Shown: positions 1 to 43,969 of the stretch, one piece after another | How positions within the stretch are numbered: position 1 is the stretch's first letter | Layout: each line of letters begins with the position of its first letter | Origin: Anaerolineales bacterium | GTDB lineage: Bacteria; Chloroflexota; Anaerolineae; Anaerolineales; UBA4823 | Reading direction: 5' to 3' | Assembly: GCA_027494035.1 (NCBI GenBank) | Contig: JAOSJQ010000018.1 | Coordinates: 28,920 to 92,919, forward strand | DNA: 64,000 nucleotides | Program-made: the position numbers and the translations under genes | The notes under the pieces: generated by a model | Told to the model about the DNA's origin: nothing | The model's database searches: none | Seen by the model: only the letters and a program-made list of their open reading frames with translations

Positions 1-858
1 CCGTGGGCGGAGCTGATCTTGCAGGGGCGGAAGACGCTTGAACTGCGGACCTGGCGCACGCACTACCGGGGACAAGTCCTGATCCATGCGGGCAACACCG
101 TCGAAATGGATGGTTGCCAGGCTTACGGCGTGAACCCCGACGAACTGGTGCGAGGGGCCATCGTAGGCACGGTAGACATCGTCGATATGGTCGATTTTGA
201 TCATGACAGTTTTGCGGCCATGCGCGATCAGCATCTCGATGCGGGCGATTGGCCGGGGGATGTGCTCGGGTGGCGGCTGGCAAACCCCCAGCGGCTCGCA
301 GCACCGATCCCCATGCGTGGGCGGCTGGGACTGTTTGAAGTCCCTGAAGATGTGCTCGAAGGCGCATCGGTGACGGAATATCTGACTCCACCGCAGCCAT
401 CAGGACCGCAGCCGGATGACTACAACCCAGAAACGCCGTTCGAACTGCACGTTGAGCCGCGCGACGAGCAAAGTTATGCGCTGGCACTCTATCAGTGGCC
501 GGTGAAGGTCAATGGAGTCCCCCCGGAAGCTAAGCGGATTGTGATCCTGGGAGGGGTGAACTTGCAGGCAGTGGCTGACCATGTACTGGAAGCGCTCCGG
601 CGCGGCGGCTACAAAGCGACCGACCTTTCGCCCAGACGGCAAGCCCCATTTCGCCTGGATGAAGAAACAGGCCTGCGCCTGGGACTCCTGTTCCTGACCA
701 TCGCCCCACTCTCCCGCCTGGACCGTATCGAAGCGATCTCGCGCGAACTGCGTGCGATGCCTTCCGAGGAAGCCTACTACTGGTACAGCAAATGTACTGA
801 CCCGTTTTACAGCAGCCGCGCACAGCAGGCGCTGCGAGTGTTACTAGCAGCGGAGTGA
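1..858 (+). CDS. 5'-partial ASCH (PUA-like) domain fused to a DUF3780-like C-terminal domain of a restriction-like defence system
   Basis: The frame is open from base 1 (PWAELILQGRKTLELR...LIHAG, typical ASCH N-terminus; GRLGLFEV end). The C-terminal half (GLRLGLLFL...EEAYYWYSKC...ALRVLLA) resembles the small accessory subunit found beside DUF1156 methylases. Confidence 0.7.
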   Translation, partial: PWAELILQGRKTLELRTWRTHYRGQVLIHAGNTVEMDGCQAYGVNPDELVRGAIVGTVDIVDMVDFDHDSFAAMRDQHLDAGDWPGDVLGWRLANPQRLAAPIPMRGRLGLFEVPEDVLEGASVTEYLTPPQPSGPQPDDYNPETPFELHVEPRDEQSYALALYQWPVKVNGVPPEAKRIVILGGVNLQAVADHVLEALRRGGYKATDLSPRRQAPFRLDEETGLRLGLLFLTIAPLSRLDRIEAISRELRAMPSEEAYYWYSKCTDPFYSSRAQQALRVLLAAE

Positions 859-859
859 A

Positions 860-1402
860 GTGATGTCCAAGAAACAGCGATGCATTGACTGCCATCACCT
901 TGCTTTCCTAGCTTATGTAGACGGTCACAATGCGGGGGATTCGGGGGATGGTCGCATAAGCGAATCGCGCCGAAAGGAACTTAAGAGGCACGAGTTCATT
1001 TCGAAGGATCTCAGACTTGCCGGAGTACAGCACATCGCGCTTGCGTTCCGGTGTGGTGACAACCGTTGGGGGCCTCGGACAGAACTCTACGTCAATTTCT
1101 GGGCTTCAAAGGAAAAAACGGACGTCTACGAGATGTCAGATGCCAGAGAACAGCAATTGTTCGATGAAATGGTGCTCAAGACAGATCACAGTGATTGGGG
1201 ATGTTTTATCAAAGCAGAACCAGGGAGACCCCCAGATAAGGTCATCCAAGAAGCACATTCAAGAGCCGAGCGTGCGCAAACACACGAGAGTCTGAAGCTT
1301 CAGAAGAAATCGAACAAGATCGGCTTCTGGGGGCTAATTGTCGCCTTCTTAGCACTGCTGGTAACTGCGATAGGTGTCGCTTATCAACTTGGAGTTCTGT
1401 AA
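860..1402 (+). CDS. hypothetical protein with a C-terminal transmembrane helix
   Basis: 180-aa ORF packed between operon genes, ending in a hydrophobic FWGLIVAFLALLVTAIGVAYQLGVL tail. Confidence 0.6.
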   Translation: MMSKKQRCIDCHHLAFLAYVDGHNAGDSGDGRISESRRKELKRHEFISKDLRLAGVQHIALAFRCGDNRWGPRTELYVNFWASKEKTDVYEMSDAREQQLFDEMVLKTDHSDWGCFIKAEPGRPPDKVIQEAHSRAERAQTHESLKLQKKSNKIGFWGLIVAFLALLVTAIGVAYQLGVL

Positions 1403-1450
1403 AGGTGATGGTGTTACCGCCTCTATTCCTTTGGTGAGAAAGATGAGACT

Positions 1451-4384
1451 ATGACCACTGATACCCGCCCCGCCGTCCTGATTGAAGACTGGCTGCCGTT
1501 CGAAGCCATTGGCGCAGAGAGCCTACGCGACGCAAGCGCCGCCCAAAAACCACCACTGAATCGCCTGCATGTCTGGTGGGCGCGTCGCCCTCTGACTGTC
1601 AGTCGGGCAGCAATCCTGGCAGGCGTACTGCCGCAATGGTCTCCGAATTGGCCAGACCAATTACACAAGCGTTTCCCTGATGAAAAGACGTACCGGGACT
1701 GGTTTGTGCATCTGCTCGGCATAACGGGCGATCCGGTTAAGGGCAAAAACGCGCTTCGTTGGGCCAGAGAGCACAGTGTATCAATTCCCAATCCTTACGA
1801 AGGACCGCGCGCGTTTACTGTCAACCCGGCCCCCGAAGACCTGACGCTGATGCGCGACCTATTGGAAATGACCTGGGGCGAGCGTGATCTGTCTGTTATG
1901 GATGTAACGGCTGGCGGCGGATCAATCCCATTTGAGGCATTGCGTTATGGGTTTACCACATACGCCAACGAGCTAAATCCGGTGGCGTCGGTCATCCTCA
2001 GGGCAACGCTCGATTATCCGGCCAGATTTGGTGTTGGATTAGCGGATGACATCCGCGACTGGGGCAAACGCTGGTACAAGCTAGTCAAGGAACGGCTGCA
2101 AACATATTTTACCCCATTGCCGCCGGGCGCAGAGGGGGCCGCTTACCTCTGGGCGCGGACGGTAGCCTGCCCCACGACAGGCAAACCCGTGCCGCTCTCG
2201 CCAAACTGGTGGTTGAGCCGGGGCGATGGTCTTATTGCAGTGCAGGTGATGACCCATCCTGCCTGGGATATGCCGCAGTTTGTCATCAAACGCGGTGATG
2301 CGATTGACTTCGACCCGGACGCGGGCACGGTCAAGCGCGGGGTGGGGGTGTCGCCGTGGACGGGGGAGGCGATCCCCGGCGACTATATCAAGCGTGAAGC
2401 GCAGGAAGGGCGCATGGGTCAGATGCTTTATGCGGTGGCGGTCAAGCGCCCCGGCGGGTTTGACTTCCGCGCGCCGACCGCCGCCGACCTGGACGCCGTG
2501 CGCTGCGCCGAGGTCGCGCTGGCCGAGCGCCTGCCGACGTGGGAAGCTGAAGGGTTGATCCCGGACGAGAGGCGCTATATCGGTCCGGCGGATCGCTCGC
2601 TCAACTACGGAATAGTCTTCATGGGGGATATGTTCTCCCCACGCCAACTGCTGGCAATGCTGACGTTTTTGGAGACGCTGCATGACGTTGGGCGTGAACT
2701 GCGCGCGACAATGGACGCGGATCGGGCGGCGGCAGTGGAGACTTATCTGGGGATCATGCTGGACAAGTGCCCGAATTACAGTTCGCTGCTCGCCAGTTGG
2801 AACGCCCCACGTGCTGTGATGCGCAGTGTATTTGACCGTCACGATTTCAGCTTCAAATGGACTTTTGGCGAGTTTGACGCAGCGGCTAACCTTCTGCCGT
2901 GGGGCGTTGAACAAGTGGTAGATGCCTATAAAGGTATGGCGGAACTCGCAAGCCCGTCGCAGTATCCCTTGTGGCAAGCGGAGAGTGTGACACCTGTTGA
3001 ACGGTTGACAGTATGGCAAGAGTCAGCAACTGATCTAGCTCAAGTCCGCACCAGTAGTCTACACAACATCACCTTCGACCCACCCTACTACGATAATGTG
3101 ATGTACGCTGAGCTATCAGACTTCTTTTACGTGTGGCTCAAGCGCTCGGTCGGGCACCTCTTCCCGGAGTTCTTCCAGGATCACCTGAGCAACAAAGACG
3201 ATGAAGCCGTCGCCAATGTTGCCCGTTTTGAGGGCATGGGCCGCAATAAGCGCAAGCTGGCGGAGCAGGACTACCAGCGCAAAATGGAGGCCATCTTCCG
3301 CGAGTGTCACCGGGTGCTACGCGACGATGGCGTGCTGACCATCATGTTCACGCACAAGAAAGTCGAGGCGTGGGATACGCTCGCCAGCGCTCTGATCAAC
3401 GCGGGTTTCTCGGTCCAGGCGTCGTGGCCCGTCCACACCGAGAGCGAGCACTCGCTGCACCAGGCCAAGAAAAACGCCGCTGCCAGTACCATCCTATTGG
3501 CCTGCCGCAAGCGCGACTCCTCCGGCGAGCCGGTGTGGTGGGATGACATCCGTGGGCAGGTGCAGCGCGTTGCCCGCGAAAAGGCTGCCGAGTTCGCGCA
3601 GCAGGGCGTCGGTGGCGTGGACCTGTACATCAGCACGTTCGGCCCGGCGCTGTCGGTCATCTCGGCACACTGGCCGGTGCTCACCAGCGAAATTGATGAG
3701 CGCACCGGTGATCCGCGCCCACTCCGCCCCGAAACCGCGCTCGACCTGGCACGCGAGGAAGTGATCAAACTGCGCAAGCAGGGTTTGCTGCTGGGTCGTG
3801 ATATTGACTTCGACCCGTTCACCGACTGGTATTTGATGGCCTGGGATGCGTTCAAAGCAGTCGAATTCCCCTATGACGAAGCGCGCAAGCTGGCGATTGC
3901 GTTGGGCGTGGATTTGGATGGCGATATTCGCGGACATAAGAACCTCGTCGCCAAGAAGAGCAGCTATGTCGTGCTGCAGGCTCCCAAGCTGCGCCGTAAA
4001 CGCGGCATGGTCGATCCTGATCTCGTCATATTCGACAGTATGATCGATGCGGTCCACACCGCCCTGCTGGTCCTGCAAGAGGATGGGACACATGCCTGCG
4101 AGTCATTCCTGAAGCGTTCCGGTTTGGCGAACGACGGTCAGTTCCGGCAATGCATCCAGGCGCTGCTCAACGCTATCCCGCGTACGAAGGTGAAGGGGAA
4201 ATGGGTGCGCGTCGAGGCGGAGTTGCTCGAACGCCTGCGCCAGAACTTCTTCACCGATCTCGAAGTCCCAGCCGAAGAAACACCGCCCGAACTCCCGCAG
4301 CAGTTGGGCCTGTTCGACCAACCCTACGAAGGGGATGAAGAAGACTACGACGAAGAATCCGAGGACGAGGAAGAAGACGCATGA
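1451..4384 (+). CDS. DUF1156-family adenine DNA methyltransferase
   Basis: N-terminal LHVWWARRPL, SAM motif DVTAGGGSIPFEA, catalytic DPPYY. Confidence 0.9.
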   Translation: MTTDTRPAVLIEDWLPFEAIGAESLRDASAAQKPPLNRLHVWWARRPLTVSRAAILAGVLPQWSPNWPDQLHKRFPDEKTYRDWFVHLLGITGDPVKGKNALRWAREHSVSIPNPYEGPRAFTVNPAPEDLTLMRDLLEMTWGERDLSVMDVTAGGGSIPFEALRYGFTTYANELNPVASVILRATLDYPARFGVGLADDIRDWGKRWYKLVKERLQTYFTPLPPGAEGAAYLWARTVACPTTGKPVPLSPNWWLSRGDGLIAVQVMTHPAWDMPQFVIKRGDAIDFDPDAGTVKRGVGVSPWTGEAIPGDYIKREAQEGRMGQMLYAVAVKRPGGFDFRAPTAADLDAVRCAEVALAERLPTWEAEGLIPDERRYIGPADRSLNYGIVFMGDMFSPRQLLAMLTFLETLHDVGRELRATMDADRAAAVETYLGIMLDKCPNYSSLLASWNAPRAVMRSVFDRHDFSFKWTFGEFDAAANLLPWGVEQVVDAYKGMAELASPSQYPLWQAESVTPVERLTVWQESATDLAQVRTSSLHNITFDPPYYDNVMYAELSDFFYVWLKRSVGHLFPEFFQDHLSNKDDEAVANVARFEGMGRNKRKLAEQDYQRKMEAIFRECHRVLRDDGVLTIMFTHKKVEAWDTLASALINAGFSVQASWPVHTESEHSLHQAKKNAAASTILLACRKRDSSGEPVWWDDIRGQVQRVAREKAAEFAQQGVGGVDLYISTFGPALSVISAHWPVLTSEIDERTGDPRPLRPETALDLAREEVIKLRKQGLLLGRDIDFDPFTDWYLMAWDAFKAVEFPYDEARKLAIALGVDLDGDIRGHKNLVAKKSSYVVLQAPKLRRKRGMVDPDLVIFDSMIDAVHTALLVLQEDGTHACESFLKRSGLANDGQFRQCIQALLNAIPRTKVKGKWVRVEAELLERLRQNFFTDLEVPAEETPPELPQQLGLFDQPYEGDEEDYDEESEDEEEDA

Positions 4385-7300
4385 CCTCGTTGCGTGAAGC
4401 TGAGTGGCAAATCTCCTACGGTCCCTCGGATGACCGGCTGAACAGCTTCTATATTCCCGCGCTGCAACGCTGTGTGAAATATGACCGCAGCACGGGCTTT
4501 TTCAGCAGTTCGTCGCTGGCCGTGGCGGGTGCTGGTGTAGCGGGTCTGGTCGCCAACGGCGGTACGATGCGTCTGCTGGCCGGAGCGCAGGCTCAGCCGT
4601 GAGGACGTGGAGGCTATCGCGCGTGGTGCATCACTGGAAGGGATTGTCACCGAGAAACTGCTGGCCGCGCTAGATCAGCCGGTCGAGGATTTGCTGCGCC
4701 GCCGGTTGGAAATCCTGGCATGGATGGTGGCACATGGCACCTTGCAGATCAAAGTTGTCCTGCCGCGCGATGCCAATGGCCTGCCTATCCCGGCGGAATT
4801 AGCCCAGGATTATTACCATCCAAAAGAGGGGCTATTCACCGATGCTGAGGGCAACCAGCTGGCCTTCAGCGGCAGCATCAACGAATCGATGACCGGCTGG
4901 CAGCGCAACTACGAGCAGTTCAGCGTCTATTTTTCATGGGATACCAGCCGCCCCTATCTGAGGCAGGTTGCGATTCGCTTCGACCGCGTTTGGGAGGGCC
5001 GTGAGCCGGATTGGATCGCCTTCGATATTCCCCAGGCCGCACGAGATGCGCTGTTGCGATTGGTCCCCGCCAGTGCGCCGGAACACGATCCGCTCGCTCC
5101 GGCAGTCATCAGCGTTGGTCCATCGCCTGATGTAGAAGCAAAACTCCGCCGCGAGCGCCTGATCTTCCAGTTCATCCGGGATATTCCCTACTTCCCCAAT
5201 GCGCAGCAGCTTGGCGCAGCGACGTGCGCGATCGCGCCCTGGCCGCACCAGATGCGCGTCGCGCAGAAAATCATCGACACCTATCCCAAGCGTTACATGC
5301 TGTGCGATGAGGTCGGATTGGGCAAAACCATCGAAGCGGGGTTGGTGCTGCGGCAGTTGGTTATTTCCGGTCGTGTGAAGCGCTGCCTGCTGCTCGTGCC
5401 TAAGTCTGTCGCGCGGCAGTGGCAGGAAGAACTCTACGAGAAATTCGTACTCGATGTGCCGTTGTACGAAGGCGGACGTTTTCGGAACTATGCGGGCGAA
5501 GAGCTAGGGTGGCCGAACGATACGGATAACCCCTGGGATGCGTTTGATATGTTCATCGCGTCCAGCCAGCTTGCCAAGCGCCGTGACCGGTACGAACAAG
5601 TCACCTCCGCGCGTCCCTGGGACCTGGTAATGGTGGACGAAGCACATCATGCTCGCCGCCGAGACTTCTTGCAGCCCATCTACCGCCCAAACCGTCTACT
5701 CGATCTACTGACCGCCCCGAACTTCCAAGCCAAAGCCATTCTCTTGATGACTGCGACGCCCATGCAGGTTCATCCGCTTGAGGTATGGGATTTGCTCAAA
5801 GTGCTGGGCCTGGGTGGCAAGTGGGGAGCGGATGAAGGCAACTTCCTGCACTTCTACCTGGAACTGATGAAGCCCTTCGAAGAGGTCGATTGGGATTTCG
5901 TCTTTGAGATGGTGAAAGACTATCTGGAATACGGCGGGCAAATCGATCCCGAATTTGCGGAACAGGCGCGCAATGCTTTGGGGTTTGTTGATTGGAACTC
6001 GTTGCAGCAGTTGCCACATGATCCCCATCCCTCGCGTGCCATGAGACCGCTGCCGGAAAACGTAAGACCTTTTGTGGTCGAGATGGCGCGTCGGCATACT
6101 CCCTTGCGTGATGTCATGTTTCGGAATACACGTGATCTTCTGCGGGAGTATGTGCGGCGCGGGCTGCTCAATGAGAAAGTTCCCACCCGCGATCCGCAAC
6201 TTATCTGGATACCCATGCGCTCTGAAGAGATGCAGCTCTATCTCCGCATCGAGGAGTACATCTCGGACTTCTACCGAAAGTACGAAAACGAACGTAAGGG
6301 TCTGGGTTTTGTGATGACCGTCTACCGTCGCCGCCTTACTAGCAGCTTCTATGCGGTCCTGCAAAGTTTGGAGCGGCGGCTGGAATTCCTGGAAGGACGA
6401 GCCGAGCAGGTATTTGACGACGACGATCTTGAGCAGGCCGATCTCGAACAAGATGTCACCGAAATTCTGGACGACGATCAACGGTCATTGTACCAGGAAG
6501 AAATCGACTACGTTGAGTCGTTCATCAGCGATCTTCAGCATCTCTCGATGCACGACTCAAAAACTGAGCAGCTTATCCAGGACCTCAGCACGATCTTCCG
6601 GCAGCGTGAAACCGCGATTGTCTTCACCCAATACACCGACACAATGGATTATCTGAGGGATAAACTCCTTCAGGTCTATGGCAGCCAGGTGGCCTGTTAT
6701 AGCGGTCGTGGTGGAGAAATCTGGAATGGGATCGCCTGGGTTGGCGTGACTAAGGAAGACATCAAACAAACTTTCCGAGTGGGGGAAGATGTCAAAATCC
6801 TGGTTTGTACTGAGGCCGCCAGTGAAGGTCTGAACCTGCAAACCTGTGGCGTGTTGATCAATTACGACATGCCCTGGAATCCGATGCGGGTTGAACAGCG
6901 AATTGGTCGTATCGACCGTATAGGCCAGGTGCACGATGAAGTCTGGATTCGGAACTACTTCTACGAAGAGACGGTTGAAGCACGTGTTTACCAGGCGCTC
7001 GCGCACCGCATCAACTGGTTTGAAGGGGTCGTGGGCGATCTTCAACCGATCCTGGCTCGTGTTGGGAGAGCCATCGAACGAGTGGTTATGGCTGCGCCCG
7101 ATGAACGCGAACAGGTGCTATCAGGAGAGCTTGACGAAATTGAACGCGGGCTGGATAAAAAAGATAGCGACATATTGAATGTCTACGAGGGCAGTGAGAG
7201 CGTTCATCCCTGGGCTGGACTGGCTGCTCCGATCACGCTTCCCGAACTTGAACGCTGCTTCTTGGAATCTGACCTCTTTGAGCGCCAGATCGTCCCGAAT

Positions 7301-8098
7301 CCAGGCATTGAAACGACCTATCTGGCAACGACATCTCAGGGACAAGTGGTGATCACGTTCAACCCCGAGACTTTTGATCGTTTCCCGAACTCGCTCCGAT
7401 TTCTCTCGTATGGCGACCAAGTTCTGGACGAACTGCTCAGCCGAGTGCCGCCCCCTGAACATGATGAGGACCGAGGAATCGTCTGTTTCTCCTCATCTGA
7501 TTCTGTTCCATTGAAAGCTTACTACGGGTTAAATCAGCAGAATCAACCAATCCGGCTTCAGACATTGCAGGACCTATTGCATGTCATTGGAGATGCCTCT
7601 GAAGACATGGCCTGGACCGACGCTGCTTTCCAGTGGGCCAAACAGGATTTTGAACAACATTTGGACAGCGCTCGCGAGGAATATGATTCCATTACCAGCC
7701 TGCGATTTCAAGCCACGCACTCAGCACTGGTGGAAAAGGCGGTCCGAATTGTGTATTGGGCCACTCTACTGGAATCGATCCAGAGCGGGCACTTTGGCAG
7801 TGTGGAGGATGCGTGGCGTGCTGTTACGACGAATGAACAGACGACCCAAAGTCTGTTGCGCCACGGTTATCCCTTTACGGCTCTATTGAGACTGACCGCG
7901 TCTAGAATAGGTGGCTCAAACATACCCCACCCTCTACCTAGTGATCTAGCCAACGCAAATCCCGAACAACTCCGACGGATGTTCCTTGGCCTGAAACAAG
8001 AGGGACAAATGCTACTGGAGCGGCTGGGTAGGACACAAGAGCAGCGGGAAATCCAGATACACATTCTGAACATCCAGGCCTCTTCTTTCAGAGTCTGA
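4381..8098 (+). pseudogene. PLD-nuclease/SNF2 helicase fusion with one +1 frameshift at about 4590-4591 (possibly a sequencing error)
   Basis: ORF 4381-4602 (YDRSTGFFSSSSL) joins ORF 4607-8098 if one G is removed from GCGCAGGCTCAGC, giving ...GAQLSREDVEAIARG. Motifs: PLD-like HPKEG...SGSINES, DEVGLGKT, DEAHH, SEGLNLQ, QRIGRIDRIGQ. Confidence 0.85.
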
Positions 8099-8160
8099 TA
8101 TGTCTCGAACAATATTTCTGGACTGTCTCGAAATATCGCTTCTGTGAGGCAAAGAAAACA

Positions 8161-8376
8161 GTGTTGAAGCTGACCATTTCTTGGCAAGCTCCGAATACCG
8201 ATACCTGGGAACTAGACTATCCTTGTCCAATCTGTCGACTGGAAACAACGGTCACGCTGGGGCAATTACGGCAGGAGGAATACATTATCTGTCGTGGTTG
8301 CCACAGCACTATCAAGCTGATTGATCAGCTGGGTGGTGTGCAACATCTCTGGGATACCATGCGCACTGTTCTTTGA
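8161..8376 (+). CDS. small Zn-ribbon protein
   Basis: 71 aa with CPIC...CRGC. Confidence 0.55.
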   Translation: MLKLTISWQAPNTDTWELDYPCPICRLETTVTLGQLRQEEYIICRGCHSTIKLIDQLGGVQHLWDTMRTVL

Positions 8377-8388
8377 TAGGAGCGCCAC

Positions 8389-9447
8389 ATGGATCAACAG
8401 CAAGTACAGCGTACTCGTTATCAGTTACAGACGCGGTTCCGCCGAGTCAGAAATGCACCGTGGGGGAATTTCGAGCTTGTTGCTCTGCAGGTGCTAGATT
8501 GGCTTGAGCGCCATCCAATTCTGGCCGGTATTGTCAAACACCTAGACAATCTGCCAGGCGATCATCATGCAGAGGTAGAGTGTATGATTACTTCAGGTGT
8601 TGTCGCAAGCAGATATTTTGTTCTTTTGAGGAAACGTGATCATAAACAAGAGAGTGAGCCGGAGTTCAAAGGTTATACCCCCAGGACCCTCGAGGAACAT
8701 GCCTCGGCCTGTCTTGAGATATTGCGGGCGACCATCCGGAAGCCTGACCGTGGATTCTATGAGGTACTTGCGACCTATTTGACTCAGGAAGAATATAGCC
8801 CCCGCACCGACAAAGATCCTCTAGACGCGATTAAGGAAATTGCAGTCCGAGACTTATACGAATACCTTGATGAACAACTGGATGCCGTGAATGCAGTCAA
8901 TGGACTTCTGGGAAAATACAAACAGGGTGTTGAATGGTTTCAGCAAGGACAGATCCGAAAGATAGTTCAAGAGGGATATGACGGGGCTAAGGGCGAGCGA
9001 GCATTGGCGCGGCATCTACAGCAGTATGTGTTTGATCAAGGTGTTGACTTCACGGTTGAGCCAACATCTGCAAGTGGAGCCGTCGACATATTGCTTCGGG
9101 ATCCTAACGGTCAATATGTTATTATCGACGCAAAGTATTTGAAGCCAGGTGCGCCGTCTTCAGAAATTACGCGCAAGATCGCCGGTGGATTCAATCAAGT
9201 AGCACGCTATTGCGAGGACTATGATCAGCATGACGGCTTCCTAGCTGTCTTCGTAGACGATGATCTATCACTTCTGATTGACTCGGCTGAGAGCGATAGT
9301 TTCAGATATTTCAGAATAGGCGGGAGTATCATCTACTTTATTGAGGTAAATGTAGCAAAACGTCCATCCGCCAGTAAATCCGGCAAAGCGCGACAGATAC
9401 ACATAACTGAAGCTGATCTGATGCACGAAATTGAAGTGTACAATTGA
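8389..9447 (+). CDS. hypothetical protein with a probable C-terminal PD-(D/E)XK nuclease domain
   Basis: RBS AGGAG upstream; motif GAVDILL...IIDAKY...GGFNQVARY. Confidence 0.65.
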   Translation: MDQQQVQRTRYQLQTRFRRVRNAPWGNFELVALQVLDWLERHPILAGIVKHLDNLPGDHHAEVECMITSGVVASRYFVLLRKRDHKQESEPEFKGYTPRTLEEHASACLEILRATIRKPDRGFYEVLATYLTQEEYSPRTDKDPLDAIKEIAVRDLYEYLDEQLDAVNAVNGLLGKYKQGVEWFQQGQIRKIVQEGYDGAKGERALARHLQQYVFDQGVDFTVEPTSASGAVDILLRDPNGQYVIIDAKYLKPGAPSSEITRKIAGGFNQVARYCEDYDQHDGFLAVFVDDDLSLLIDSAESDSFRYFRIGGSIIYFIEVNVAKRPSASKSGKARQIHITEADLMHEIEVYN

Positions 9448-9619
9448 AGAGATCCAGACGGGAGACAATGAATAACCTGGTCGCTCGCGACTGGTCGTTC
9501 CCGAACAGGCAGGACTTTGAAGCGCCGTCCAGGTAACGCTGCCGAAATATCTACCAATGAAAGGAGCGTCCCCCAAGTCCGCTCCTCTATATGCGTTCAG
9601 ACCTTCTATCATTCGCGGG

Positions 9620-9835
9620 CTACTTCCGCTTTCCCCGCACAATCTGATGCACCCGCTGCTCTGAGATGCCGAACAGCCGCGCCAACTCCGGCACGCTCAT
9701 CCCCGCCGCATATCGGGCGCGAATCTCTACATTGCGTTCACGTTTGAGGCTTGACACGGGAGCCTGAGGAAGCGAAAAGCCACGATATAGCTGCTGCAAA
9801 ACGCGGCTCGTGGCTTGCTCAAGGGTGTATAAGGT
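9620..9835 (-). pseudogene. orphan C-terminal HTH tail of a second (element B) serine integrase
   Basis: Directly follows the left att core on the minus strand. RNVEIRARYAAGMSVPELARLFGISEQRVHQIVRGKRK is clearly homologous to the tail at 43638-43894. Confidence 0.7.
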
Positions 9836-11657
9836 TGTGCCCCATAGGGGCCTTTGGCTCAGAGGCTGCCTCAGTAGTAGGCGAAATCGCCTGCGTTTCA
9901 TCCGCTTGAACGCTCGTACCACCGTCCATTTGGTCACTCGTACCGCTGCCCATTCCACCGTCTCCTTGTTCGTCTTCGACCTCATACAGTGCCGCGCGCA
10001 GCACGACAAACTGATCTGCCCACGGCTTGAGCCGGAAGTCTACGATCCGCTGCGTGTCCAGGTCATACACGATTTCATCGAACAGGCTGCGCACTAAGCC
10101 CTGGCGGTCCTCATCTTCACCAACCTCCCAGAGACGCACCAGCTTATCCAGCGCTTCGGCGCACATTGCGAACTCTAACGCCAGCTTTTCGGTTTCGGTG
10201 GTACGTGCCTCCCAGTGAGCAATTTCGCGCTCATTTTGCTCAACCCGCCTGCGGTATTCTTCAGCGCTGATCACGCCATCACCAAAAAGAACAACTGCTG
10301 CCTCAATGCGCCGACGACACAGGGCAATTACTTCTTGCTTTTCCTGTTCTAAATCCTGGTCGTTTTCGTAGCGACCATTAGCCTTGTCCATCTGAATCGC
10401 CAACTCAGTCATGAGGTCGAGGGCCTCAGGACGAATGGTGAGCAGTCTTATCAGCCGCTCGAAATCTGCTTCCAGAACCTCGCAAAGAACTGACCGGTTT
10501 TGGCAACCACACTTGACGCCTGCTTTGTGCCGATAACGCATCTTCCCGTAAGTGTCGCTGCCGCCCAGAGCGCTGATCAGCCTGGGGTCTTTTTGTTCCG
10601 CTGCTCGCCGGACACAATGAGCACAATATGTGATCGCCGATAACGGGTAGAAGTGCGTTCTCCGGTTAACGCCCTCATCGGCGCGGCGAATGGTTCGCTC
10701 TTGCCGGGCGCGAGCCACCGAACGCAGCAGCTTGAGAGGGAAAACCGCCCGTTTTTCCTTGAAAGGAACTTCATCAACATTGTCAAAGCCGTCATAGGCG
10801 CGTCGGTCTTTGGCTTTCTTGTCCATGACGATTCCGCCATATTCCGGCCAGTTGGCGACCACACGGCGCACATCGTCTCGCGTAACCTCGCGTGGCTCTC
10901 CGGTACGATCACGATAAGCCCAGCCTTCCTCGTTCATTTTGTAAGCGATTTTTTCCAGGCCAAGATTACCGGTCGCATAGAGCTCGAGAGTGCGTTCCGC
11001 CGCTTCGAAAAAGCCTCGCCAGAGGGCCCCGTCTTCAGGCATTTCATCAGCAGTACCGGCGACAAATGTTCCATCTGCCAAGAGCCAGGCTCCCTCAGGG
11101 GTGGGTTGCAGATGGCCTTCGGCACCCCGAAGCGTCCCAAATGGAGGCATACCGATGCTGATACCTTTGGCCTTGCGGTAGGACACACTGTCTTTGGCTC
11201 TTTGAGAGATGTCTTCGGCGTAGTACTCGTCGATGATCGCGGTGAACTGGATAAACAGACGCCCCATCGCCGTCGAGGTGTCAACCTCACGCCCAGGGGC
11301 GGCTAGCACTAACGCTAACCCGCGCTTTTCCAGATAGTCCACCAGGTCTCCAACCCTCCACCCTTTGCGGTGAAGCCGCGAAAGATCATTGGCTACCAAG
11401 GCCACCACATCTGGATCAGCCAGACGGGCCTTCAGGGATAGCCATTCTGGTCGATTAGCTTCCTTGCGGGCTGATTTATGCCCGCCAACATCTTCATACC
11501 ATTCAGCAATCCAGCCTTTTCGCTCAATAAAGCCTTGGATGTTGGATCGCTGACGCTCCGGGCTGTTTCTGTCGTCATCATCGCGGGTGTAGGACTGGCG
11601 AACGTAACAAAGAGCAACCTTGCGCTCCGATGGTGTGAAAACCTTTTTACTGGACAT
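9819..11657 (-). CDS. large serine recombinase (integrase), C-terminally truncated at the att site in the integrated state
   Basis: Catalytic YVRQS and DLSRLHR, recombinase domain (PPFG), Zn ribbon (CAHC...CGC), coiled coil. The frame runs through the att core (PMGH) and stops 5 codons later. Confidence 0.95.
   Translation of the reverse strand: MSSKKVFTPSERKVALCYVRQSYTRDDDDRNSPERQRSNIQGFIERKGWIAEWYEDVGGHKSARKEANRPEWLSLKARLADPDVVALVANDLSRLHRKGWRVGDLVDYLEKRGLALVLAAPGREVDTSTAMGRLFIQFTAIIDEYYAEDISQRAKDSVSYRKAKGISIGMPPFGTLRGAEGHLQPTPEGAWLLADGTFVAGTADEMPEDGALWRGFFEAAERTLELYATGNLGLEKIAYKMNEEGWAYRDRTGEPREVTRDDVRRVVANWPEYGGIVMDKKAKDRRAYDGFDNVDEVPFKEKRAVFPLKLLRSVARARQERTIRRADEGVNRRTHFYPLSAITYCAHCVRRAAEQKDPRLISALGGSDTYGKMRYRHKAGVKCGCQNRSVLCEVLEADFERLIRLLTIRPEALDLMTELAIQMDKANGRYENDQDLEQEKQEVIALCRRRIEAAVVLFGDGVISAEEYRRRVEQNEREIAHWEARTTETEKLALEFAMCAEALDKLVRLWEVGEDEDRQGLVRSLFDEIVYDLDTQRIVDFRLKPWADQFVVLRAALYEVEDEQGDGGMGSGTSDQMDGGTSVQADETQAISPTTEAASEPKAPMGHNLIHP
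9836..9850. repeat. left att core, 15-bp direct repeat of the tRNA-Glu 3' end (TGTGCCCCATAGGGG)
   Basis: Exact match to 43895-43909; contains the quasi-palindrome CCCC-ATA-GGGG. Confidence 0.92.
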
Positions 11658-32943: not shown

Positions 32944-33772
32944 GATTCTCCTCTAGTAGGTGGTGTTCATCTACAGCGTAGGTTGCACTCTCCGCTGTAG
33001 CTTTTTCTAGTCGGTTGGCAAAGGCGTGGGTGAGGGCAGAATTGCTGACCTTCACGAGATCGCGGGGCAAACCCTTGGTGTGCTCGTAGATGACCTCAAA
33101 AGCTGCATCTTCAAACGGCAATGGGAGCACACCACCCGCTGTTTTCCAGCGGTGCTCCATCATGGCGCGTGCGTCTTCCTTAGTAAGCGGGGAAAGTACA
33201 CCAAACTGGGCTACTCGACTCATGAGCTCGCGGCGCTGTTTGAGCAGCGGAATGAGCTCTAACTGACCAAACAGAATGATCTGGATGAGCCGCTCGTTTT
33301 CGAGCATCATGTTGGTCAGCGTTTTGATCATGCCCAACATGTCGCGGTCTGGCCGCACGCTGTTGTCCAATTCTTGGGCCTCGTCTATAAGCAGAAGGGG
33401 AGTACGACCCTCAAGGACTTCCTTGGCCAGGAATTCCTGTAACTGGTCGAACGCGCCTTGCTTGGTGCGCGTTGGATTGAGGCCAAACTCTCCGGCGATA
33501 GCCTTGAGTAGGGCGGTGTCACTTGTCTGGTTGGTGTAGTTGAGCACAGCGATGGTGTAGGCTTCGTGATCGAAGCGCTTGCGCAGCATATTCAGAATTG
33601 TGGTTTTTCCCATACCCACATCACCGTAGACCACGGCAAGGCCGCTTTTGTTACGAATGGCGTACTCGCACTTGGCGACGCTCTCGGCGTGGCTTGGTGC
33701 CAGGTAGAAATACGTTGGGTCGGGCGAGGTGGTGAAGGGATTGTGTTGGAGATTGAAATACTGGCGGTACAT
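32933..33772 (-). CDS. ExeA/GspA-like AAA ATPase
   Basis: YFNLQHNPF...PDP, Walker A GDVGMGKTT, LLIDEAQEL, ILFGQLEL, GLPRDL. Confidence 0.85.
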   Translation of the reverse strand: MYRQYFNLQHNPFTTSPDPTYFYLAPSHAESVAKCEYAIRNKSGLAVVYGDVGMGKTTILNMLRKRFDHEAYTIAVLNYTNQTSDTALLKAIAGEFGLNPTRTKQGAFDQLQEFLAKEVLEGRTPLLLIDEAQELDNSVRPDRDMLGMIKTLTNMMLENERLIQIILFGQLELIPLLKQRRELMSRVAQFGVLSPLTKEDARAMMEHRWKTAGGVLPLPFEDAAFEVIYEHTKGLPRDLVKVSNSALTHAFANRLEKATAESATYAVDEHHLLEENHVE

Positions 33773-33923
33773 ATGGTGTGCGGCGTCGTGTCAATGCGGC
33801 TGACACGAGCGCACCATCATCAAAGCATGTTGAACTATGGCTGTCAACGACCCAAAATCGGTCGGTCATACCGCAATAACGCAAGAAGCTGAAGTCCAGG
33901 GAAAATCGTCAGTTATGGCTTTC

Positions 33924-34901
33924 TCAGCGCGGCAGAAGCATGTCCGCGAGCGACTTTATGGTCGCGGTGAAGCTGGCATCCATTCCCTGATGTCCTCGCC
34001 ATTTCATCCAGAAGTCGATGATACTGCCGCCCCCGCAGCCAGCATAACAATGCCAGAAGTTCTCCTCTCGGTTCACGCCGAAGCTCTTGTGTTGATCTTC
34101 ATGGAACGGGCAGCAGCCGGTCGCGTTCTGATCGAGCTCGACGTAGCGCCGCACGAAATCGTAGACGCTGATCGAGTTCTTCAGGCGCTCGGATAGCGTG
34201 GCTCCGGCTGGTTCAGGGCGGGGTTCTGGAAAAAGCGGCTTGACCTGGGAAAGGTCAACGCTCGACTGCTTTAAGCACACTTGCCGGATATAGGCAGGCG
34301 GCACAATCTGTGGCACCGACATAATGCGTACTTGCTCGCGCACGCTAGGCGCAATGGGCGCGCCTTCAGGGGTGACGAAATAATACCGTTGGCCGGTCAG
34401 GCGGTGCTTTCCGAGCGGCAAGCGAACCAACGAGCCGGGGCCGGTTTTGAGCTCGGATTGCTTTGGGAATAGCTCAATGCCTTGCAGGTCGTAGCGTCCA
34501 AGGAGGCGCTGCCCAAACTGCCGGGCTGATGATCCTGGGATGGGGGAGAAGAACAGCCACAAATGTCCGCCGCGCCGGGAGGGTTCCAGATAGGCAGTGA
34601 TGCCATCTTGTTCCAGGTCTTTCGTCATTTTGAGGAGCTCAGCCCACTGTTCAGGCGTGTCGGCATCCAAACAGAGCCAGCGGGCCTGATCGCGCTCATC
34701 CAGCGCATACGCGCCGAGCGTCATTATCCCCTTGATGTGTGCTTGTAAGTAGTCGAGTTGGAAACGACGTTTGAGGGTGAGGTATCGTCCGTCCTCAGTC
34801 TGAATGGGATAGCAGTCCTGACGAGGAATGAACGTCTTGGCATACCGACGCAAGATGTCCCGGTCTAGCTCTGGAGATGGTGGTTTTTCCCTGCCCCTCA
34901 C
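33924..34901 (-). CDS. archaeo-eukaryotic primase-like domain plus CHC2 zinc finger (start uncertain; the ORF is open to 35078)
   Basis: LCLDAD, SRRGGHLWLFF, ELFPKQ, GSLVRLPLGKH; CPFHED...WHCYAGC. Confidence 0.8.
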   Translation of the reverse strand: MRGREKPPSPELDRDILRRYAKTFIPRQDCYPIQTEDGRYLTLKRRFQLDYLQAHIKGIMTLGAYALDERDQARWLCLDADTPEQWAELLKMTKDLEQDGITAYLEPSRRGGHLWLFFSPIPGSSARQFGQRLLGRYDLQGIELFPKQSELKTGPGSLVRLPLGKHRLTGQRYYFVTPEGAPIAPSVREQVRIMSVPQIVPPAYIRQVCLKQSSVDLSQVKPLFPEPRPEPAGATLSERLKNSISVYDFVRRYVELDQNATGCCPFHEDQHKSFGVNREENFWHCYAGCGGGSIIDFWMKWRGHQGMDASFTATIKSLADMLLPR

Positions 34902-34959
34902 ACGAACATTATACAAAACGGTGGGGACGTATTGGAGTAGCGGCAAGTTTTGGCTGGCT

Positions 34960-35166
34960 CTATTGGGTGACTCGCTCGGCGCTATGCTTGAGCGCTTCGT
35001 AGTCGGCAACAGGGAGCATAACCAGAACAGGGAGTCCGTCACGCTCGACGATGAGGTGCTGCTTGTCTTTGAACACACGGCGCATCGTTTCGCCGATATT
35101 ACGCTGAAGTTGAGTAGAAGAGATGATTTCAGGGGTGAGATTTGACTTGTTGGGTGATTGGATCAT
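34960..35166 (-). CDS. Phd/YefM-like antitoxin-fold protein
   Basis: ISSTQLQRNIGETMRRV...HLIVERDGLPVLVMLPVADYEAL. Confidence 0.75.
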   Translation of the reverse strand: MIQSPNKSNLTPEIISSTQLQRNIGETMRRVFKDKQHLIVERDGLPVLVMLPVADYEALKHSAERVTQ

Positions 35167-35231
35167 TCATAATAGTTTAGCATCAGTACGTAGGGCTATG
35201 TATTCCGGGCTATTGGGTTAGATTCTGATTG

Positions 35232-35585
35232 TCAGTACTGATCAATCCAGAATTCCCAGCTTTTCCGTTCGAGGTCGTAAGCTCCCTGGAGGGCAGTATC
35301 ATCCGGCAGAATGCGGCCCTTTTCCCAGTCGCCGTCACGCGCGATCCCCATGAAGGCGGTGACAGTGACCTCGCCATCTTCCTGGCGCAGTTCTACCCAA
35401 CCACCAGCCATAAGGTCCATCTCAAACAACTGGCCGACCTTGAAAGTGAACTCTTCGGAGTATTCGACATAACCAGCCTCATCTGGCTCAAGCTCGCCCA
35501 TCGTAATACTGGTGGGTTCCAGATCGTAAGGGATAGCCTCGACGGCTTGCTCGAAAAGGTCTTCAAGTGATTCAGGTTGAGTCAT
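35232..35585 (-). CDS. hypothetical acidic protein
   Basis: RBS GGAGG; 117 aa. Confidence 0.65.
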   Translation of the reverse strand: MTQPESLEDLFEQAVEAIPYDLEPTSITMGELEPDEAGYVEYSEEFTFKVGQLFEMDLMAGGWVELRQEDGEVTVTAFMGIARDGDWEKGRILPDDTALQGAYDLERKSWEFWIDQY

Positions 35586-35602
35586 ACACCTCCCGTTATC
35601 TA

Positions 35603-35644
35603 TTATATGTATTGTTACTTAATATTATATAACAATACGTATAA
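35603..35644. promoter_or_regulatory. AT-rich operator-like inverted repeat upstream of the replication operon
   Basis: TTATATGTATTGTTA-12 bp-TAACAATACGTATAA (14/15 match). Confidence 0.55.
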
Positions 35645-36060
35645 CAAACAAGGGGCAGATCAGAGATAGGCGCGTATGCATCCGCGTTTTTGGGTTGTGT
35701 GTTCGGAGTTGTTGAGAATGGGATGAATACAGCTCAGCGGTCTGTAAGCGCCTGTTATCAACGGGCTGGGAGGTGGGCGCGGATCGCCAGACCAAAGCCT
35801 GACAGATGCGAAGCTAAGTCGGTGATTAGCAGACTTAGAACACACATTGGAACGATTTCAAAATTGCTAAGAATCGCTGAATCAAATAATCCTCCCTCTC
35901 TCCTCATATACATAGTAGTGGGGGGTGGTGCGGAGGGGAGTTTGCCACGTTTTTCGGCGGATTTCAGCCCGTTTTCCGGTGAAAACTACGGTTACGCGTT
36001 ACCGTAGGGGAAACCGTAGCAGATCAGGGCCAGATTATGGATTGGGGAGAACAGCAAGGA

Positions 36061-43637: not shown

Positions 43638-43894
43638 CTACTTCCTCTTCCCCCTCAATATCTGGTACACCCGATTCTTCGAGATGCCATACTCCCTGGC
43701 CAAGTCAGGCACGCTCATGCCAGCAGCATACTGAGCCCGGATTTCGGCATTGCGATTTGTCTTTTTGGGAGTACTCTGAGATTGCGGTGATTGGGGAGTT
43801 GGCGAACCTGGATACAGTCGATTCACCAGGGAGAAAACAGCTTCTTCGAAGGTAAAAATAAAGCTGCCATCTGCTCTAAAGGCATGTGGCAGCC
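43638..43894 (-). other. detached C-terminal 85 aa (HTH) of the element A serine integrase
   Basis: Open frame continuous with the att-core codons P-M-G-H in the same frame used by the integrase at 9836-9850; ends RNAEIRAQYAAGMSVPDLAREYGISKNRVYQILRGKRK. Confidence 0.8.
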
Positions 43895-43909
43895 TGTGCC
43901 CCATAGGGG
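43895..43909. repeat. right att core overlapping the tRNA-Glu 3' end
   Basis: Exact match to 9836-9850. Confidence 0.92.
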
Positions 43910-43969
43910 ACTCGAACCCCTGTTTCCGCCTTGAGAGGGCGATGTCCTGGGCCGCTAGACGAATGGGGC
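43897..43969 (-). tRNA. tRNA-Glu (anticodon CTC), 73 nt, CCA not encoded
   Basis: Acceptor stem GCCCCAT/ATGGGGC, anticodon arm TCGCC-CTCTCAA-GGCGG, T-loop GGTTCGAGTCC. Confidence 0.97.

Follow-up and report, generated by a model that had tools for sequence, protein, structure and literature searches.

A probable detached serine-integrase tail in its own reading frame behind a tRNA-Glu island of an Anaerolineales bacterium

The SSV-type ('suicidal', type I) tyrosine integrases SSV1, pTN3 and pT26-2, described as restricted to archaea, carry the attachment site attP within their own gene; integration at a tRNA gives int(N) and int(C) at the element ends with the attachment (att) site translated, pieces of unlike origin can combine into hybrid integrases, and an intact gene would be rebuilt by tandem integration, although such rebuilding was reported as never observed (Badel et al. 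2020, PMC7253208). For the ssrA-specific islands of Dehalococcoides, the 3′ end of the serine integrase gene dsiB (DsiB) always overlaps attL, the stop codon lying in the next island or within ssrA, and it was suggested that dsiB may be complete only on the circle or beside an adjacent island that holds the missing 3′ fragment (McMurdie et al. 2011, PMC3146451). Here we analyse a stretch of 64,000 nucleotides (nt) from an Anaerolineales bacterium (the window, C18:28920-92919, from contig JAOSJQ010000018.1 of an assembly of 24 contigs and 4.05 Mb), in which a ~34-kb island, element A, with a large serine recombinase, integrase A, occupies a tRNA-Glu and a sequence ending in a helix-turn-helix (HTH) of probable resolvase type, tail B, lies immediately outside its left att. 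Tail B is, in our judgement, probably the detached tail of a split serine integrase of a different frame class, left by an earlier insertion at the same tRNA.

Element A resembles the Dehalococcoides islands in layout, both having a Chloroflexota host, a serine integrase and tandem arrays bounded by repeats of an RNA-gene 3′ end; those islands differ in targeting ssrA rather than a tRNA, the split was left as speculation, and the paper on dsiB reports neither a tail domain nor frame classes, and neither orphan tails nor fused forms (PMC3146451). Integrase A is like the SSV-type integrases in that attP lies inside the gene and integration at a tRNA splits it, but the SSV-type split falls inside the enzyme and inactivates it, whereas the split of integrase A removes a terminal HTH only; as a serine rather than a tyrosine recombinase, it shares the layout of that type without being a member. 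Rebuilt in-frame tandem junctions, moreover, are observed in the Chloroflexota family, unlike in SSV-type elements. The myxophage Mx8 provides a further parallel among phage tyrosine integrases (IntP/IntX), its attP lying in the 3′ end of int and integration replacing the integrase C-terminus; we know of no detached DNA-binding domain or frame classes in that system.

With the classical large serine integrases (phiC31, Bxb1, A118/LI, TP901-1, CcrB), integrase A shares PF00239, a conserved Cys cluster, a putative coiled-coil-like region and a short core. The classical enzymes have attP outside the gene and, to our knowledge, lack a C-terminal HTH; their targets are mostly protein-coding genes, not tRNA 3′ ends. 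The tails probably share the resolvase-type HTH of the small serine recombinases (gamma-delta/Tn3 resolvase, Hin, Sin); in these the HTH comes straight after the catalytic domain and E-helix, whereas in the Chloroflexota family it follows a body of ~600 amino acids (aa) and is detachable. Our literature search returned no paper on a detachable HTH tail, frame classes or orphan tails of serine integrases. The locus provides independent support for a little-described design, in which the genes of Chloroflexota serine integrases contain attP and integration strips the enzyme of a DNA-binding tail, parallel to the archaeal suicidal tyrosine integrases, and it fleshes out the 2011 remark on Dehalococcoides. 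What appear to be new are the core frame classes of serine integrases, a single att core that sister lineages translate in several frames, each lineage having a tail to match. The features of the window are as follows.

9836-9850: left att core (attL of element A), a 15-nt repeat, TGTGCCCCATAGGGG
43895-43909: right att core (attR of element A), within the tRNA-Glu 3′ end
43896-43969, minus strand: tRNA-Glu(CTC), the integration target
9851-43894: element A, ~34 kb, ~51% G+C, between both core copies
9819-11657, minus strand: integrase A, a 612-aa large serine recombinase
9620-9850, minus strand: tail B, probable detached 3′ part of a split serine-integrase gene, PLWG (B-type) class
43641-43907, minus strand: tail A, PMGH class, 3′ part of the integrase A gene
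1-9619: DNA behind tail B, with defence-type cargo and without integrase or att copy

Tail B and the split-integrase family

Tail B runs on the minus strand from 9850 down to 9623, with its stop codon at 9620-9622, and reads PLWGTTLYTLEQATSRVLQQLYRGFSLPQAPVSSLKRERNVEIRARYAAGMSVPELARLFGISEQRVHQIVRGKRK over 76 codons without an internal stop, in a frame that begins inside the att core and is one base out of register with integrase A. Tail A has its coding part at 43644-43907 of the same strand (MGHRLPHAFRADGSFIFTFEEAVFSLVNRLYPG…RNAEIRAQYAAGMSVPDLAREYGISKNRVYQILRGKRK). A sequence-only reading of this DNA had described the tail outside the left att as homologous to the one on the tRNA side, and its sequence, coordinates and frame proved correct: the two share 54% identity over 76 residues (tblastn E = 4e-21), and when all six frames of the 4-Mb assembly are scanned with a profile built from tails, tail B scores E = 1e-31 and is one of just six such tails. 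Tail B is real, far above chance expectation. Pfam models for HTH_23 (25.6 bits), Sigma70_r4 (24.7 bits) and HTH_28 match it, all at 24-26 bits and around their cut-offs; HTH_7, the resolvase HTH, passes its cut-off on tail A (29.6 vs 23.8 bits) and falls just under it on tail B (21.8 bits). The AlphaFold model of tail B (mean predicted local distance difference test (pLDDT) score of 80) has a helix at residues 11-22 followed by a three-helix HTH at residues 34-73 (pLDDT ~96; helices 34-49, 54-61 and 65-73). A Foldseek search with this model yielded nothing at E < 0.1, its top matches being generic HTH domains with Sin (2r0q) among them.

Integrase A, the sole intact family integrase in the assembly, bears the PF00239 resolvase catalytic domain at its N-terminus (E = 9e-22, residues 16-165), and its sole PDB sequence match is the catalytic domain of the TP901-1 integrase. 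The PF07508 Recombinase domain matches it weakly (16.7 bits vs a 21.1-bit cut-off) and a PF07508 search across the genome gave no match, the family scoring under the model cut-off; family-specific profiles were used in its place for the genome-wide integrase search. Cys345, Cys348, His377, Cys383 and Gly384 are invariant in 12 family members, a Cys/His cluster that fits a predicted zinc ribbon. At its C-terminal end (…EPKAPMGHNLIHP, then stop), integrase A crosses the core as A-P-M-G-H and, in its integrated form, is cut short five codons on (…APMGHNLIHP, then stop).

Joining the ends of element A creates one open frame of 692 aa that leads from integrase A through the core into tail A. Homologues in which integrase and tail are contiguous exist as proteins of 632-678 aa (P0011, 678 aa; P0019, 675 aa; P0025, 675 aa, NCBI Chloroflexota; P0026; P0038), located by a search with the C-terminal third of the 692-aa fusion. 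We surveyed 78 loci in species-representative genomes, all but two titled as Chloroflexota lineages and mostly Anaerolineae. About 45 of the integrases there read directly into the antisense strand of a tRNA, mostly tRNA-Glu but also tRNA-Arg, tRNA-Lys and tRNA-Ala; integrase and tail are contiguous in 6 of the 78 loci (L021, L026, L028, L057, L067 and L072), and in another count of six a tail follows the integrase in a different frame. Near-identical integrases occur in both states: L026 is fused (…SQEVKQAVPHRGL-DVPSF…HTH), L027 ends in the tRNA (…SQEVKQAVPHRGL-EPLFPP, then stop), and P0016 and the integrase of contig C20 form a second such pair. Among the elements whose two ends can be paired, integrase and own tail share a frame in seven of eight, element A and two elements of contig C12 included. 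The split-integrase model, invoked in the sequence-only reading, is supported by these fused homologues and by the occurrence of the same integrases split and fused, together with the 692-aa in-frame join.

Under this model, the family reading frame would consist of a body with catalytic, zinc-ribbon and coiled-coil parts, an unstructured linker, a core made of the tRNA 3′ end and a tail of ~75-90 codons ending in the resolvase-type HTH. The integrase gene would span its own attP, and integration at the tRNA would part body from tail, leaving one at each element end. We infer that the full-length protein would be the integration-competent form and that the tail may have a role in directionality. 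The arrangement suggests a built-in directionality switch, with full-length enzyme putatively made only from the circle, which could be of interest for serine-integrase engineering.

A different account, which makes tail B a small HTH gene in its own right, retained beside att sites for a role in trans (as a recombination directionality factor, regulator or att-masking protein, for instance), seems to us unlikely. Several features would suit such a gene: tails outnumber integrases by 6 to 4 in the assembly and by ~12-15 to 5 in Aggregatilinea lenta (A. lenta); orphan tails adjoin host-like genes at L005 (7805-8309; ribokinase, sugar ABC transporter) and on C20 (C20:50317-51055; membrane protein); the tails are under purifying selection; gene callers annotate many of them as 75-130-aa proteins; and an in-frame GTG at codon 33 of tail B opens a potential 44-aa, HTH-only product. 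However, the tails have no conserved start codon or ribosome-binding site, and the B-type frame has no start codon beside the tRNA; in tail B, ATG, GTG and TTG are absent from the core to codon 33 and the first ATG is codon 52, within the HTH. A GTG-initiated product would lose the conserved helix upstream of the HTH, and the purifying selection was measured between lineages and says nothing on the use of this copy. The agreement of frame between tail and own integrase in seven of eight elements, and the contiguous fusions, likewise favour a detached tail over a separate gene.

The PLWG frame class

On the minus strand of the left core, integrase A reads P-M-G-H and tail B reads P-L-W-G, as the sequence-only reading had recognized, and the PLWG frame recurs in A. 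lenta, L095, L096 and P0165. The pattern of the class comprises the core read as P-L-W-G, a 9-nt linker and [TS]LE.A…LYRGF…RN.EIR…HTH. From the core to the first conserved tail codon ([TS][LF]E.A), the linker of tail A spans 41 nt and that of tail B 9 nt, and it is because of this difference of 32 nt that A-type and B-type frames differ. The additional 32 nt of the A-type linker form a terminator-like hairpin (-18.4 kcal/mol) followed by UUUAUUUUU; the B-type linker is unstructured.

Counterparts of tail B come from A. lenta, where a tRNA-Glu(CTC) leads directly into a B-type tail (reading SSPLWGTTLYTLEAATNRV…RGKRK and containing SSPLWGTTLYTLEAATNRVLAQLYRGFSLP) and a second B-type tail lies at 2164553, 135 kb from the first. 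Both (tails T_d and T_b) have the linker DNA CACAACCTTATACAC, and the linker DNA of L095 and L096 is identical. Tail B shares 76% and 75% identity with the two A. lenta tails at a ratio of non-synonymous to synonymous divergence (dN/dS) of 0.14 and a dS of ~1.2, which indicates that the PLWG frame was coding throughout the divergence. The metagenome locus L095 has a tRNA-Glu followed by a B-type tail and then by dndB/dndC-like genes, L096 holds a truncated B-type copy, and P0165 reads PVWGTRCYTPREAV… with the same short-linker spacing.

Integrases that cross the core in this frame exist as well. The A. lenta integrase P0014, with 72% identity to integrase A, crosses it as …RSPLWG… and lies 78 kb from tail T_d at the tRNA, with which it pairs, and P0167 is a contiguous integrase plus tail (…AMPLWGFWF…HTH) over the DNA GCGATGCCCCTATGGGGG. 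In a maximum-likelihood tree of 60 integrases, the PLWG integrase pair is a clade (support 100/99) and sister (100/97) to the PMGH subclade with integrase A, and labels of frame and orientation switch at least 11 times across the tree. All five stop-free core frames are used among the relatives, PMGH, PLWG and xYGA (P0177) in tRNA-sense and PHRG and CPIG in antisense orientation. Sibling lineages read a common core in different frames, each with a tail in the matching frame. Judged by these sequences, tail B belongs to a separate, conserved frame class rather than being an A-type tail that suffered damage.

The converse, that tail B is an A-type (PMGH) tail degraded by deletion and frameshift so that its frame has no meaning, is very improbable. 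It draws on the absence from tail B of the 32 nt that adjoin the core in tail A, 32 not being a multiple of three, and on the related C20 tail, which has lost its 5′ end and keeps no intact core. But the 9-nt linker and PLWG frame recur twice in A. lenta and in L095, L096 and P0165 with dN/dS of 0.14-0.27, PLWG-crossing integrases exist, one of them contiguous with its tail, and the frame of tail B is open for all 76 codons. Conservation of the PLWG class largely refutes an origin as a frameshifted relic.

Equally remote is a programmed +1 ribosomal frameshift at the core by which integrase A would reach tail B as a full-length hybrid, a candidate suited by the offset of exactly +1 and by a tail-B frame without a stop in the 52 codons upstream of the core, where it overlaps the 3′ end of integrase A (open reading frame 9620-10009), and rejected on the lack of any recognizable slippery site in GCC CCT ATG GGG and on a mirror junction of A. 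lenta (PLWG integrase, PMGH tail) whose tail frame has a stop codon immediately ahead of the core; at this G+C, chance alone would leave 52 codons open in ~16% of cases, and out-of-frame junctions everywhere amount to unlike classes side by side.

In the A-type linker itself, the hairpin and U-run occupy 43850-43895 of the minus strand (z = -2.7), directly after the tRNA, with the frame open through the hairpin; they have the look of a tRNA terminator set within coding sequence. Elsewhere, PMGH integrases run into similar …LPHAF..G.F.F stretches without an HTH behind them. A simple terminator scan of 9300-10100, around tail B, found none.

History of the locus and the missing partner

Evidence for recombination of element A is anatomical, namely the 15-nt core at both ends, the 34-kb element of low G+C (~51%, against 56-70% right of the tRNA) and the tRNA 3′ end; the core occurs in two copies in the window, at 9836-9850 and 43895-43909, and nowhere else in it. 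When A is excised in silico, the restored site (tRNA end, core and tail B) matches the tRNA-tail junction of A. lenta at 84 of 100 nt, with no mismatch from the tRNA end across the core to nt 11 of the linker. A site of this kind exists in A. lenta, and the most likely position of tail B before the arrival of element A is therefore right behind the tRNA. The sequence-only reading had an older element B integrating first and A inserting in front of it; the prior presence of tail B held up through this junction match, while an intact stacked element B found no support in this assembly.

We consider it likely, then, that an earlier insertion at tRNA-Glu left tail B behind as the detached end of a split serine integrase of the PLWG class. 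The order of events that we infer begins with a PLWG-class element or island that would have integrated at tRNA-Glu(CTC) and placed tail B directly behind the tRNA. Element A would next have integrated into the tRNA-proximal core, shifting tail B 34 kb from the tRNA to the 3′ end of integrase A, where the offset of one base would preclude a hybrid protein. With its partner integrase lost or beyond the contig end, tail B would remain as an orphan and is itself most likely inert.

Several results weigh against this reading. The sequence-only reading had directed the check leftward, to an upstream integrase and a third att copy; neither a fragment of a partner integrase (profile E <= 0.01) nor a third core copy was found in C18:1-38741 (38.7 kb to the contig end) or in the rest of the ~90%-complete assembly. 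Proteins of element A compared with C18:1-38741 have only a 3-kb transposon-like block in common with it, giving no evidence of a sibling element. The protein database searched holds no 692-aa form, and the predicted hairpin and U-run of the A-type linker could terminate transcription ahead of the HTH.

Of the six tails and four integrases that the six-frame profile search returned for the whole assembly, none of the integrases lies in C18:1-38741, and the best core-like site there has two mismatches, with one site at <= 2 mismatches against 1.6 expected by chance. Contig C18 opens with a repeat that C12 also has. Left of tail B lie a SNF2/ResIII helicase (4607-8098, plus strand), a weakly RmuC-like open reading frame of 352 aa (8389-9447, plus strand), methylase-type and kinase-type genes and insertion sequences, and defence cargo likewise follows the B-type tail in L095 and A-type tails in A. 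lenta. Plausibly, tail B marks one end of a defence island, the integrase end having been lost or not assembled, and the DNA at 1-9619 may be a remnant of this island B. Orphan tails of this kind record the class and order of past insertions at a tRNA hotspot and help to delimit stacked defence islands.

The sister contig C20, 96-98% identical to the tRNA-side flank, has a tail related to tail B that is without its first nine codons and an intact core and adjoins a membrane-protein gene, a clear relic. We sought this membrane-protein gene in C18 as the far border of island B, where it is absent. The two versions of the tRNA-Glu flank (C18:72816-98433, in the window from 43896, vs C20:30800-5135; 96-98% identical) have different tRNA-adjacent islands, which points to strain heterogeneity in the bin or a diverged duplication. 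Tail B (9623-9823) is 88% identical to C20:50323-50523 in the first 120 nt compared and 58% identical in the last 81 nt, a mosaic pattern that suggests possible exchange between tails. Logan contigs from other sequencing runs (L001-L003) have the identical junction of integrase A, attL and tail B, and all three break inside tail B (9700-9735), in a stretch common to the C20 tail, with no further flank gained; this suggests that both tail variants coexist in the samples behind them.

Two smaller observations concern element A. Its 3-kb block of three or four genes (33048-36019) recurs at C18:10908-13879 with 84% nucleotide identity and proteins 71-97% identical, and is probably a transposon. 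The deduced attP (9851-9880 joined to 43870-43909) contains a 7-bp inverted repeat, GGCAGCC…GGCTGCC, 13 nt and 4 nt from the core, which is off-centre relative to the near-palindrome CCCCTATGGGG and leaves the crossover dinucleotide ambiguous.

Tandem arrays and frame compatibility

The offset between integrase A and tail B blocks their fusion, as the sequence-only reading had stated, and at this locus that holds; its extension to a general insulation of stacked islands does not, since frame usage across the arrays of relatives is about as often in frame as out of frame. In A. lenta, an array of >200 kb at tRNA-Glu(CTC) (BFCB01000003.1, ~2,028,900-2,229,100; L006 and L085-L093) contains five integrases of the family along with roughly a dozen tails, in either orientation, with junctions of the types int→|←int and tail←|→tail. 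Its three junctions in which an integrase runs towards a neighbouring tail all join unlike classes (PLWG→PMGH, PHRG→CPIG and CPIG→PHRG). In-frame neighbour junctions are found at C12:84505, with a truncated integrase; at L026, where an intact integrase is fused to the tail of the next element and the tRNA-proximal integrase L018 lies 57 kb off on the same contig; and mid-contig at L021 and L067 (16-67-kb contigs), again with intact integrases. Across the relatives, 6-8 neighbour junctions are in frame and 10 out of frame, which is the expectation of random pairing among two or three classes per orientation and argues against an insulation rule; selection for out-of-frame stacking found no support in these counts.

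A bolder proposal, which we regard as having little likelihood, is that the frame classes form a compatibility code in which an enzyme can be completed solely by a tail of its own class and orphan tails, tail B among them, serve as functional landing or completion modules and are not debris. If so, unlike neighbours would keep integrases truncated and the array quiet, and like neighbours or tRNA-side orphan tails would give full-length hybrids able to mobilize or destabilize neighbouring islands. With its five integrases, A. lenta, which we take to be an isolate, is a potential test organism.

Tails outnumber integrases in each genome examined, and elements of the family are present in both orientations at the tRNA-Glu core. 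Contig C12 carries a third tRNA-Glu array (cores at 8803 and 84505, tRNA-Glu at 112406-112478), with tails flanking one core; a truncated integrase continues in frame into the tail of the next element, and the integrase beside the tRNA is frameshifted. The cargo of the A. lenta array includes dnd, toxin-antitoxin, reverse-transcriptase and vancomycin-resistance-like (VanW, D-Ala-D-Ala ligase type) genes.

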